From positions 111,972,001-112,036,000 of the forward strand of contig OX597816.1 of NCBI GenBank assembly GCA_951406725.2: a stretch of 64,000 nucleotides of DNA, written 5' to 3'. Position 1 is the stretch's first letter, and the number at the start of each line of letters is the position of its first letter. Shown one piece after another: positions 9,348 through 48,757 of this stretch. The stretch is from Octopus vulgaris (lineage: Eukaryota). Below the pieces are notes generated by a model. The model was given only the letters and a program-made list of their open reading frames with translations, searched no databases and was not told the origin of the DNA. Both the position numbers and the translations under genes were made by a program.

Positions 9348-9734
9348 TTAGGAGTGGCTGTGTGGTAAGTAGCTTGCTTATGAATCACATGGCTCCGGGT
9401 TCAGTCCCACTGCATGGCACCTTGGGCAAGTGTCTTCTATTATAGCCTCAGGGTGACCAAAGCCATGTGAGTGGATTTGGTAGATGGAAACTGAGAGAAG
9501 CCCCTCGTATATATATATATATATGTATATGTTTGTGTGTCTGTGTTTGTCCTCCCAGCATAGCTTGACAACTGATGCTGGTGTGTTTACGCCCCTGTAA
9601 CTTAGCAGTTCGGCAAAAGAGACCAATAGAATAAGTACTAGGCTTACAAAGAATAAGTCCTGGGGTTGATTTGCTCGACTAAATGTGGCGCTCCAGCATG
9701 GCCACAGTCAAATGACTGAAACAAGTAAAAGAGT
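9348..9734 (+). mobile_element. Near full-length SINE family A
   Basis: Full head, CORE-like segment, internal (TA)n, tail ...gtcaaatgactgaaacaagtaaaagag. Confidence 0.92.
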
Positions 9735-22164: not shown

Positions 22165-23114
22165 ATATTGTTATATTTCGGAATGGTCATATTGCCAGTT
22201 TAGCCAATAAAAACACACGCACTATATATTTGGTGTTATTTTGCTTCATTGTTATTTATTTTTTACATTAATCTTAATCCTATTTCGGCCAGAGTTCTTT
22301 CGTCACACTCCTGTGACCGCATCAGTGGTTCTTTGTTTTCTTCTTTCTTATTTGTGTCTCTCCTTACTAACCATCAGCCATTTTGTATTTCTATTGTATG
22401 TCTTCATTTGTGCATGCTTATATCTCTATGTGCGTTTATGTTTATTTAGTGTGTGTATGTGGGGGATGCCTGTAATATTTGTATCTTCTGTTTATATATG
22501 TTCATGTAATTTGTATTTTGTATTTTGTTTTTGTTGTTTTTGTTTATTCTTATTTTGAGTTTACATCCACTTATTATTTTCATTACATATGCTTGTATGT
22601 ATAACAATACTAGTAATAATAATAATAGTTATATATTTTTTTTTTCGATTCGATTTATTATTATTATTACTAGTATTGTTGTTATACATACAAGCATATG
22701 TAATGAAAATAATAAGTGGATGTAAACACAAAATAAGAATAAACAAAAACAACAAAAACAAAATACAAAATACAAATTACATGAACATATATAAACAGAA
22801 GATACAAATATTACAGACATCGCCCCACATACACACACTAAATAAACATAAATGCACATAGAGATATAAGCATGCGCAAATGAAGACATACAATAGAAAT
22901 ACAAAATGGCTGACGGTTAGTAAGGAGAGACACAAATAAGAAAGAAGAAAACAAAGGACCACTGATGCGGTCACAGGAGTGTGACGAAAGAACTCTGGCC
23001 GAAATAAGATTAAGATTAATGTAAAAAATAAATAACAATGAAGCAAAATAACACCAAATATATAGTGCGTGTGTTTTTATTGGCTAAACTGGCAAAATGA
23101 CCATTCCGAAATAT

Positions 23115-23122
<8 letters not shown>
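22165..23122. repeat. ~960-bp palindrome: arms 22165-22627 and 22656-23122, ~28-nt spacer; probable inverted Penelope-like termini
   Basis: The arms are near-exact reverse complements (atattgttatatttcggaatgg ... ccattccgaaatataacaatat). The ORF track shows mirrored ORFs (22241+ / 22777-). Flanked by (TA)n. Confidence 0.95.
22956..23000 (+). ncRNA. Minimal type I hammerhead-ribozyme-like motif with a non-canonical core (mirror copy on minus strand at 22287-22331)
   Basis: GGACCA-CUGAUGC-G-GUCACA(GGAG)UGUGAC-GAAA-GAAC-UC-UGGCC: stem I, core, perfect 6-bp stem II, GAAA, 2-bp stem III. A9 is replaced by C. Confidence 0.5.
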
Positions 23123-23439: not shown

Positions 23440-23513
<74 letters not shown>

Positions 23514-23549
23514 CACAGGAGTTGCCGGGTGGTAAGTAGTTTGCTTACC

Positions 23550-25599
23550 TTTGTTGGAGACAGACGTGTTTTTTGGGCCGAAGAGTTCTTGCTGCTTGAT
23601 GTCACGTCTTTCGTCGTGAAATATTGAAATTTGAGGCTTGACTACAGGTAGGCGTTTGTTGTATTTTTTTTAGGGCTTAGTGGAGTTTGTTGCCCTGTAT
23701 TTAATATTTTAGTGAGCAACAGTCACCACTCTGCTCCGGACATTTGCCTGCCTGTGGTTGTGTGTAAAGACTCACTTTGCAGTGAGAATTGTGTTTTTGA
23801 GGAGGCGTAGCCCCTCCAAAAAAATTAATTTGTTTGCGAAAATTGTCTTTGTGAATTTCCACTGGATTACCAAGGAGTACCAAGGCAGTAAGAACTATTT
23901 TTGTGACTGGAGTACTTGTATTATTACAGAGTTGCGGAATTGTGTTGCCTTGTATTGAACTGTCTTCTTTCGTTCTTTTTTTCTGCTCTGTCTTTCCGTT
24001 CTTCTTTCGTGTTTATTACTGAACTTTTATTTAGAACATTTGAACTTTTGTTGAACTCTTTTTTGTTTCTTTGTGGTTTTAAATCCTGGCAACAAAGAAA
24101 ACCACTGTGCTGGAGTGGGAAATTATGCCCTCCAAGCAGTGGATAGAGGACCGGAAATGAGAGAATGGTGGTGTTGAGGACATACTCCAAGTCACTCGAC
24201 ACCATCACTGTGTTCTCTCAGGACGAAATTGAAAAAGAGTTGGCAGAATACCTACCAACTATCAAGTATATTGCAAGGGATGTCAAATTTGCAACAGTGT
24301 GGTTACTGTTTGACACCCCTAAAGAGGCTAGCTTGTTTACTAGTCAGCCCCTGGAAGGGGAAAAATTTTTGTTTCTCCCTACATATCGGGAAAGGAAATT
24401 GACAAGAGGCTGGGTGAGTGGGCTGCCACCCGGAATAGAGCCTGAGTGGATAGAAGATACTATCCGCTGGGGTCTGGGTGGCAGCGGAGCCAAGCTCTTG
24501 AAGGTTAGAATGCTTCCTGTGGCTGATTAGGTGGGGTCAAAAGCAATTTTGACCCTATGGACCCAATCAGCCAAAGATCTGGTCTTCCCAGACTTTCTAA
24601 AGATGGCAGGTTCTAGTTATCCGGTGACTCTTGAGGGATGCCCTTCGCCCAAGTGTCACCTGTGCCTGAAATCGTGTCACATCAAGAGGAAGTGCCCCAA
24701 CAACTATGCAAGGGCACTGTAAAAATTAAGAGAGGAGGATGTTTTTCCTCCAATGGAGCTTCCTGAGCATATAAAGGAGGAAGGTGTAGAAAAAGTCGAG
24801 GAGGAGGTAACCCCCTCAAAAGGAAAAAAAAGAAAGAAGGTGGACAACAATGGTTGTCCACCGATGGATCCTGTGAAGGCGGGAGGGAAGGAGGGACCTA
24901 CCAACAAACTGGAGGAACCTCACTCTCCCGACGCGAAAAAGGGGGAAAAAAAAGAAAAGAAAGAAAAATGGGGCATTGCCGGCAGTTGCTGGTGCACAGG
25001 TGGCATGTTCCGAAACCCCTTCAGTGGAACGTGAGCCACCGGAGGTGGGGAAGAAGAAGGCCCCTCCCAGTGGAAATGTTGATGAACATGTCATCTTCTA
25101 TCTCAGGGGAGGGGCTGTAGAGAACTATATAGAAAGTTCCTTTGATAGTCAGGACCTAATAGACTCGACTTGTCTTCCAGAGTGGCCTCCGCAGGTGGCT
25201 GCTTGGGTACTGGAAGAAAGAAACCTTTATCACATAATGGACTCCTTCTCAAAGGAAGAGTATAGATCATGTGTAAAGGACCCCCACTTGCGGTTGCTGG
25301 AATGCCTGCAGGAGGCAAAAAAGTTTATTAAAGACTCATTGATGTAATTGTTTTCAATTGTAATGGATATTTTTGCCCATAAAAGTGTGACATATTGTAA
25401 GAGGGTTAATACCTCAGTTAGTATTTATTTTTTTGAAAAAAAAAACAATGTTTTAGAGACGCAAAAGTTGGTGGGCGCTTTTTGTCTTCTCCCATCCTTA
25501 TAATCCTCATATCATTATCATTCACCTCATTAATGTCCTTGTCCAGCCTGCAAGCTACCATACACTATGTACTGCCTTTATGGCAAATTCGATAAAATA
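23550..25599 (+). mobile_element. ORF1-only (HAL1-like) non-autonomous L1/Tx1-type retroelement
   Basis: 16-bp TSD aagtagtttgcttacc (23534-23549) / aagtagcttgcttacc (25600-25615). ~600-bp 5' UTR, one gag-like ORF, 3' UTR ending gataaaata. No endonuclease or RT sequence. Confidence 0.75.
24165..25347 (+). pseudogene. ORF1/gag-like protein with a CCHC zinc knuckle, disrupted
   Basis: ORFs 24165, 24531 and 24753 are in one frame separated by single stops, with a frameshift into 24976-25347. Motifs VSGLPPGIEPEWI (RRM-like) and PKCHLCLKSCHIKRKCP (C-x2-C-x4-H-x4-C), then a Lys/Glu/Pro-rich linker. Confidence 0.8.
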
Positions 25600-26385
25600 A
25601 AGTAGCTTGCTTACCAACCACATGGTTCTGGGTCCATTCATTGGGCAAGTGTCTTCTACTATAGCCTCAGGCCAGCCAAAGCCTTGTGAGTGGATTTGGT
25701 AGGCAGAAACTGAAAGAAGCCCATCATATATATATGTATATATGTATGTATGTGTGTCAGTGTTTGTTCCCCCAACATCACTTGACAACCGATGATGGTG
25801 TGTTTACATCCCTGTAAGAGACCGATAGAATAAGTACTAGGTTTCAAAAGAATAAGTCAAATAACTGAAACAAGGCATTGGTGAATAAAGATTCTTTATT
25901 TGTATATTAAAGCTACCATTGGTTCCATGTTAAGAAAATATCTGAACTTTTTAAGCCTATCACATGGAGAAATTGGTGTTTAGCTCCATTTTGGATTAAT
26001 TTTGGGTTATGCTAAGAATTATTGCATGGTGCCAGAAGTTTTGACTTTAATCAAATGCAACTCCAAATCATTGCTAAAGTATTTGCATAAATAGAATCAG
26101 AACAGTTTATACTGGCATCAATTCAGACCCCGCTTTCTTTTTCCTTCTCTCTAGACATATCTATACTTCAAACTTAGTATCCAACTTACTGTCAAAGCAT
26201 ATATATTGAAATATTTCCAAATGCTTCATACTTTCAAACATTTCAACTGAGGAAGGTTTATGTAGTGGATACATTTTGTATTATATTATTCGAACCTGAA
26301 ACACACGTATTAAATGATTTCAAAATATCTGTTTATTTTGAGTTCATTATTAAACAGATAGATAGATAGATAGATAGGTAGATAT

Positions 26386-27415
26386 GTTTCTTTATTGGCC
26401 ACACAGGGCTGCACACAGATGGGACAGATTACAAAGTAGAGCTTTTCTTTTTGGGGGAAAGAAAAAAAAAGGCGGGTTAGGTTTTCGATCAAAAGGGATC
26501 ATAAAAGGGAAAGAAGAAAAAAAGGAAAAGAAACAAAAGAAAAAAAAAACGATCAATAGGGATCGTGTATCACAGTGTCATGATATAAAGTGTAAAGGCA
26601 GAAGCAGATAAGGTTTATCCGTGGGAAGAAAAGCCTACGGAAAAGACCACAGTAACCTCGGTCAATATTGTTACATGTTACCACATTTGCTTGCAAGTAG
26701 GTAACCCTCTGTTTTAAATTTCTGGGTTCAAGGTGGCTTCGTCATTCATACGTGCCATCCTTGCTACATTCACCCATCTTTTTTTGAAACATTCGCTAGA
26801 TAAAACTTGCCTCTCTACTCTCACTTTCCTTTTCAAGTGATACTTGAAGAAGTTGATGAGAGATTGACCAGAGAGGAAAGTGTTTGTCTCCAATCCTTTC
26901 AGGCGTGTCCATCAGATACATTCTTTCGCCATAGCCACAAGGATGATGAAAATAGCTCTTCCTTGCTGTTTGAAGGAAGGAGGCGTGATAATATTGACGA
27001 TAGACTCGGCTGATAAACCTACTCGTCCCACACGTGTCAGCAGTCATTCGACATATGCCCACAGCTCAGAAGTTGTTGGACACTGCACGAGTGCATGCAG
27101 AATAGCTTTGTCACTCTGACTGCATCTTGGGCAGGTCGGCCCCGTGTTTCTCGAGCTGTGTCCGTAGAGCTTATCCCGAATGGGTAGCGCTTCTCAGTAG
27201 CACTGCTAGGCCAGGGATCTCTGGAAGTTGTCCATGGGCCCTGGCCCAAACGTCATCCTGAACAGGCAAGTCAGGTATTCCTCATCGACATCCAGGTTCG
27301 CCCCAAGCTCATTGTCGTACCTCCCCTCCACTTATCCCCTATAGAATGCTTTGGTTGTGTTGAAGTCACTCAAGGTCGACCCAGGACAGCATAGTTGCTT
27401 GAGAGCAATGCGACG
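26386..27415 (-). mobile_element. 5'-truncated Tx1/L1-clade LINE (ORF2 C-terminal zinc finger and 3' UTR) inside a (GATA)n tract
   Basis: Minus-strand translation ...EALPIRDKLYGHSSRNTGPTCPRCSQSDKAILHALVQCPTTSELW..., stop at about 26714, aataaa near the 3' end. GATA repeats on both sides. Confidence 0.88.
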
Positions 27416-48351: not shown

Positions 48352-48757
48352 TCTTTTACTTGTTTCAGTTATTTGAATGTGGCCATGCTGGAGCACTGCC
48401 TTTAGTCGAGCAAATCGACCCCAGGACTTATTTTTTTTGTAAGCCTAGTACTTATTCTATCGATCACTTTTGCTGAACTGTTAAGTTATGGAGACGTAAA
48501 CACATCAGCATCAGTTGTCAAGCAGTATTGAGGGGACAAACACAGACACACACACACACATATATATATATATACACACATATACACATATATACGATGG
48601 GCTTCTTTTGGTTTCCGTCTACCAAATCCACTCACAAGGTTTTAGTCAGCCCGAGGCTATAGTAGAAGACACTTGCCCAAAGTGCCACACAGTGGGACTG
48701 AACCTGGAACCATGTGGTTGGTAAGCAAGCTACTTACCACACAGCCACTCCTATACC
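48352..48757 (-). mobile_element. Full-length SINE family A
   Basis: Reverse complement of head to tail. acagat flanks both sides. Confidence 0.92.

Follow-up and report, generated by a model that had tools for sequence, protein, structure and literature searches.

A family of LINE-derived elements that encode ORF1 and lack ORF2 inserts strictly at a single position within the tRNA-derived head of an abundant SINE of Octopus vulgaris, and a 5.45-kb partner LINE of the L1 group, probably of the Tx1 clade, is likely to supply the endonuclease and reverse transcriptase that copy it there. The copy described here occupies positions 23550–25599 of the window, i.e. the whole stretch of 64,000 nucleotides that was analysed (contig OX597816.1, positions 111,972,001 to 112,036,000), and is a decayed member of this family.

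The insert between the two target repeats measures 2050 bp (Table 1). An empty SINE aligns to the locus with its positions 6–38 to the left and 23–300 to the right of the insert, both in register, and the initial annotation of a self-contained unit, exactly after which the SINE resumes, is thereby borne out. Its statement that endonuclease and reverse transcriptase are missing holds as well, since no ORF2 match is found inside the element, the sole nearby one belonging to a separate fragment at about 26760–27410. The ORF1 frame lacks an ATG where its relatives begin, is shifted near 24130–24150 and 24920–24970 and is interrupted by stop codons at 24528–24530 and 24720–24722. Pfam reports no domain at the curated cut-off for the ORF pieces of the window or for two relatives. 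Rfam gives only chance or simple-repeat matches and no tRNA on the locus and the SINE copies, and ARAGORN finds no tRNA gene; the host SINE is too diverged for detection by either program. The short A-rich end noted earlier is seen as the terminal AAATA, a poly(A) tract being absent, and the last bases of the element together with the right repeat form an AATAAA at 25596–25601.

Table 1. Features of the window copy and its host SINE (positions in the window).
Feature	Position	Strand	Remarks
SINE head, 5′ part	23512..23533	+	degenerate A-box-like motif; aligns with empty SINE
Left repeat AAGTAGTTTGCTTACC	23534..23549	+	15/16 identical to right repeat
5′ UTR	23550..24085	+	first 25–29 nt 90–92% to two older autonomous copies, L228 and L230
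Broken ORF1, ~410 codons	24086..25347 (about)	+	two predicted RRMs, CCHC knuckle, basic disordered linker, variable C-terminal part
Zinc knuckle CX2CX4HX4C	24654..24695	+	read from sequence and ORF
3′ UTR	25348..25599	+	last bases AAATA, without poly(A)
9-nt reverse complement of target	25550..25558	+	lead only; shuffle P 0.002
3′ motif common to autonomous partners	25565..25599	+	80–89% over 35 nt; small hairpin 25573–25585
Right repeat AAGTAGCTTGCTTACC	25600..25615	+	second target copy
Remaining host SINE	25616..25874	+	B-box-like motif near 25631–25640; body with internal deletions

Several neighbouring features were recorded in the window. Upstream of the SINE, a 960-bp near-perfect palindrome (22165–23122, 95% self-complementary, 31-nt loop) is possibly a foldback or MITE-like element. 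On the minus strand a 5′-truncated L1-group/Tx1-like LINE fragment (26376–27415) has an ORF2 C-terminus about 50% identical to that of the partner; it is flanked by (TATC)n on both sides and looks like a member of a microsatellite-targeting family. Six more heads of the same SINE, all empty, are located at 9356, 28214, 29916 and 50203 on the plus strand and at 48746 and 5145 on the minus strand.

When the 2.8-Gb genome was searched at the DNA level with the insert as sole query, 3026 candidates were obtained, 40 of which were scored, with 64 matches; at the protein level the ORF1 core as query gave 12,174 candidates, of which 150 were scored, every one at 81% or more and many with whole 416–422-codon frames. 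Twenty copies spread down the list of these 150 matches were fetched. None has an ORF2 match, and 18 terminate at the target, 1.45–1.95 kb past the start of the ORF1 core; copies with both ends are mostly 1.9–2.3 kb long. These observations support the ORF1-only state as a property of the family and not a one-off deletion, in agreement with the HAL1-like family proposed initially. Intact 414-aa ORF1 frames are found in relatives, and one young ORF1-only subfamily comprises many near-identical copies with complete frames of 416–422 codons. Among sequencing runs with other organism labels, the window copy is covered completely (30 of 30 bins) by contigs of two labels and in 13 of 30 bins by those of a third. 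Contigs spanning the element body are also present in three of four runs whose RNA nature is a guess, and they are not counted as evidence.

The host SINE is indeed abundant, as had been supposed, two of its 27-mers being present in 34,108 and 31,728 exact copies. Among the best 30 loci of the insert-only search the 3′ end is included in 22, and the target follows in all 22; at the 5′ end the target is found in 29 of the 30 (exception L020), two of the 29 (L008, L021) being stacked behind the end of another element. A 20-mer specific for the element has 541 matches, and in 26 of the first 30 the target comes next (at most 3 mismatches of 14), while of the other four three continue as SINE and one lacks it. 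Genome-wide, element 3′ ends of the common form are followed by exactly AAGWAG in 374 of 438 cases, the other 64 being without this exact 6-mer, and ends 1–2 nt longer than the common form in 80 of 107. Insertion flanks are thus not random. Three copies (L110, L147, L148) have no SINE at their 3′ end. In ten 5′-truncated copies of 51–676 nt the element sequence begins directly after the SINE head; their apparent duplications measure 6 to about 16 bp, and each copy hence represents a separate insertion. A 27-mer spanning the filled junction occurs 333 times, the matching empty site 34,108 times; about 1% of this SINE variant is occupied, and each insertion separates the A box from the B box.

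The SINE head is tRNA-like, with A and B boxes, and among 30 tRNA loci its best alignments are with those of tRNA-Lys(TTT) (z 6.8 versus shuffles). On this alignment the target repeat spans the D-loop, the D-stem and the sequence up to the anticodon loop, so that the anticodon-arm placement of the initial annotation applies to the far end of a site that begins in the D-loop. The more general targeting of tRNA-like sequences proposed there finds no support in the loci compared: the motif is absent from the homologous place in all of 30 true tRNA loci of six isotypes (63 of 656,489 candidates scored). The target is, as a refinement, probably the SINE itself and not tRNA-like sequence generally. 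None of 12 host SINE copies inspected visually has a Tx1-like tail at its 3′ end. OK and OR1 are published octopus SINEs. A further one, OR2, is named as a CORE SINE (PMC4758252).

Reading upstream of filled junctions led to a 5.45-kb element with two ORFs, namely an ORF1 with zf-CCHC above the cut-off and homology to the two-RRM core described below, and an ORF2 of the order APE-RT-zf-RVT. The best PDB match of ORF2 is L1 ORF2p (E 1.3e-66; R2 1e-19), and by its sequence the partner belongs to the L1 group. It is young: about 80 matches have an identity of at least 95%, and whole frames of 1140–1150 codons are retained in several of them. Among the 20 best-matching copies, 19 terminate at the target and 18 are preceded by the SINE head at the 5′ end. 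Of 18 more diverged partner-like copies six end at the target; the six of these 18 with 61–67% endonuclease identity end at other sequences. Two of the latter, from a more distant Tx1-like family (L214 on C32 and L219 on C20, 62–65% endonuclease identity), share the same non-SINE flank, a second target sequence. The three copies at L231/L232 (C9:2663500-2683000) are autonomous and lie head to tail with a spacing of 5455 bp and the target motif between each.

The partner and the short family have only the last ~35 nt in common (80–89%), including the small hairpin, the rest of their 3′ UTRs being dissimilar. This stretch is a likely recognition signal for ORF2p. With it, an autonomous element sharing the 3′ end, as anticipated from the window copy, was found. 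A target preference with target site duplication and an RRM/CCHC ORF1 are Tx1-type features, and from architecture and targeting the partner is probably of the Tx1 clade; the database searches with it returned no named Tx1 reference. The shared target and 3′ motif together point to mobilisation in trans by the ORF2p of the partner, which is therefore the likely helper supplying endonuclease and reverse transcriptase.

The designation of the window ORF as RRM-like rests on the predicted fold of an intact relative, because Pfam is silent on the window pieces themselves. This relative, P0002 (414 aa), was modelled from a 37-row alignment and is confident for residues 11–210 and disordered beyond. 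Residues 14–103 superpose on the La RRM (Z 9.2, rmsd 2.7, 83 residues) and residues 104–182 on 4n0t_A (Z 8.3, rmsd 2.3, 71 residues), and the top Foldseek matches of the model are tandem-RRM proteins with E about 1e-5. ORF1 is accordingly predicted to comprise two RRMs and a CCHC knuckle, which places it in type I of a classification whose type II denotes coiled coil, single RRM and CTD (PMC5203782). Of the gag-like ORF annotated initially, the knuckle is retained and the single RRM-like segment is replaced by two.

In comparison with the P0002 gene, dN/dS of the ORF1 core is 0.06–0.27 in the 32 computable of 34 comparisons, and it is low in a young ORF1-only subfamily even at dS 0.1–0.3, with the reservation that dS is near saturation and that the alignment filter can depress dN; for the window copy itself 193 codons give a dN of 0.165 and a dS of 1.41. 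Inside the window's own subfamily the ratio is 0.21–0.93 (15 pairs), as expected because post-insertion decay is mixed in. Judged from these ratios, ORF1 is under purifying selection between subfamilies and its coding capacity is maintained. The ORF1 of the helper is only ~28% identical to that of the ORF1-only family. In a 41-row tree, midpoint-rooted and built from query-anchored fragments, the 17 ORF1-only rows group with an Octopus sinensis protein in a single clade (100/100, stem 1.36), from which all 12 autonomous ORF1 rows are absent. Such a separate clade and so low an identity argue against a recent deletion of the helper; of the Tx1 derivative suggested initially, an L1-group partner with the same target and 3′ end stands, and an ORF1 left over from deletion of the present partner does not. 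The closest database ORF1 protein is annotated as Octopus sinensis, and among ten more distant relatives eight belong to Octopus or Argonauta. The 5′ ends shared with L228 and L230 (Table 1) suggest exchange or a common origin of 5′ ends. In L137 and L145, compared to L120, the N-terminal core of ORF1 is distant (dS about 2) and the C-terminal part close (dS about 0.12), a contrast that suggests recombination between ORF1-only subfamilies.

The two repeats flanking young elements are not equivalent. A set of 27 young full-length copies (16 autonomous, 11 ORF1-only) was scored after removal of identical flanks, with a pattern that missed some copies. The left repeat reads TAAC in all 27, and the right repeat differs in eight of them, two of which (L061, L062) had been selected with a pattern that itself contained this right-hand variant; the reverse discordance does not occur. 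Variants at repeat positions 7–8 are common to both repeats in L268 and L196. From the one-way discordance and the shared variants it follows that the early bases are duplicated target and that the final bases follow the element. The 16-bp target site duplication annotated initially therefore persists as a repeat identical at 15 of 16 positions, though not as a plain duplication in young families, and the terminal bases of the left repeat at 23534–23549 may likewise be element-derived. A target-like leader on the RNA, annealing at the 5′ junction, would account for this pattern.

Stacked insertions are seen at L269 (before an autonomous copy), L231/L232, L008, L021 and L230. One extra base at left-repeat positions 9–11 is present in L061, L062, L127, L193, L208 and L232 and perhaps marks the junction of genomic and cDNA strands. 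An RNA-templated right repeat, considered since young copies have TAAC there, was rejected, as TAAC and TTAC are equally common in empty SINEs. The 3′ UTR stretch complementary to the target measures 9 nt in the window copy (P 0.002) and in L195, and 6 nt in L120 and L228 (P 0.15). Covariation of this stretch with the target is unsupported: on AAGAAG sites it is changed in one of three copies and not in the other two, and one copy with the changed complement sits on AAGTAG.

In the mechanism proposed, the RNA of the ORF1-only element would be coated in cis by its own ORF1p and would recruit the ORF2p of the partner via the shared ~35-nt 3′ motif. ORF2p would nick the bottom strand in the D-loop of the SINE and prime reverse transcription there, the top strand being cut about 15–16 nt downstream. 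For full-length copies the RNA would begin with the target-like leader, and the cDNA end would anneal to the overhang and overwrite its last bases, by which a usable site would be renewed and stacking allowed. A transcript that extends past the element into the target is suggested by the AATAAA made at the junction and by the absence of poly(A), and such read-through may set the point of priming.

The short elements might have arisen otherwise, namely if autonomous LINEs with this type of ORF1 had undergone recurrent internal deletions, each independent of the others, so that the selection dates from those ancestors and the short elements need no ORF1. Since only 40 of 3026 and 150 of 12,174 candidates were scored, a rare autonomous element with such an ORF1 may exist, and the 5′ ends in common with autonomous copies show that the groups exchange or share parts. 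This origin is nonetheless unlikely in view of the ORF1-only clade free of autonomous ORF1s, the many near-identical copies with whole frames in the young subfamily and the low dN/dS at small dS. Even less probable is a helper other than the 5.45-kb partner, or a true tRNA or other RNA gene as the actual target with the SINE as a look-alike. It is favoured by the restricted tRNA comparison (six types, 63 of 656,489 candidates), by the further Tx1-like families in the genome and by published Tx1 families aimed at small RNA genes (PMC4494074). Yet the motif is missing from the 30 tRNA loci, no flank read in the fetched element copies was noted to continue as a tRNA gene, and the distant families with 61–67% endonuclease identity end elsewhere.

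The most improbable explanation is that head, insert and SINE body move as one composite, with the position inherited from a single founder. Element subfamilies do follow SINE subfamilies, as one end type is found on AAGAAG sites in 9 of 9 and another in 0 of 54 cases among the 100 rows listed. The composite is, however, largely refuted by copies that are 5′-truncated at many points with the head still adjoining upstream, by right flanks that within one subfamily are different SINE variants or other elements, and by the 5.45-kb element of unrelated body at the same base. Insertion of the ORF1-only family at the fixed SINE base by the machinery of the partner is hence preferred. For a wider reading we see about even chances: the family would be an old, self-standing lineage of protein-coding passengers, selected across octopods and not derived from the helper, that swaps 5′ ends, borrows a SINE-specific endonuclease and renews its site by the leader, with the SINE as a safe harbour, and it would be the first ORF1-only passenger of the Tx1 group.

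The system joins two separately known things, ORF1-only LINE passengers and Tx1-type LINEs aimed at repeats, and adds a SINE as target class. The divergent, selected ORF1 beside a young and intact helper is a natural test of why a passenger needs its own ORF1p, and the many dated insertions at one base are a genomic read-out of 5′-junction formation in target-primed reverse transcription; a new site-specific endonuclease would also be on offer. The present analysis adds evidence for the age and selection of the ORF1-only lineage and for its distinctness from the helper, together with the one-way left-repeat count. For O. vulgaris, 13 recently active L1-Tx1 families have been described in a paper whose main text does not contain the words 'target' or 'nested' (PMC13282606). 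Neither a SINE-targeting LINE nor a Tx1-derived ORF1-only family was found in the literature searched; Repbase or supplements may hold them.

Non-autonomous LINEs with ORF1 are known for L1 (HAL1), Jockey (HeT-A) and CR1 (Ag-Sponge) (PMC5786205), none of them from the Tx1 group, and the long-kept coding capacity of ORF1 has been taken to imply ORF1p acting in cis and ORF2p in trans (PMC3627910, PMC5753468). Like these, the octopus family has ORF1 alone between UTRs and has long kept its coding capacity, and the features of the HAL1-like class, i.e. multi-copy ORF1 without ORF2, a maintained ORF1 and a 3′ end in common with an autonomous LINE, are all present. Contrary to HAL1, HeT-A and Ag-Sponge it has no poly(A), uses one fixed target base and carries an ORF1 only ~28% identical to that of its likely helper. 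As mammalian HAL1 encodes a coiled-coil type II ORF1p and the octopus protein is predicted to be type I (RRMs and CCHC), the family is not a HAL1 in the strict sense.

Tx1 families target DNA transposons, LTR elements, U2 genes and microsatellites (PMC4494074). Those residing in transposons comprise Xenopus Tx1 in Tx1D, crocodilian Tx1-Mar in Mariner-N4_AMi with the passenger SINEU, and Tx1-8_Crp, Tx1-4_AMi and Tx1-9_AMi (PMC4494074). They resemble the octopus system in that a LINE is aimed at another repeat and is accompanied by non-autonomous passengers with the same target, while the octopus LINE is aimed at a SINE head and has a passenger that encodes a protein. Dada DNA transposons target tRNA genes at the A box and the anticodon arm (PMC8869645). 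They also insert within a tRNA-type Pol III unit and replace flanking target bases at some sites, but Dada is a DDE DNA transposon on true genes, whereas the octopus family is a retroelement on a SINE.
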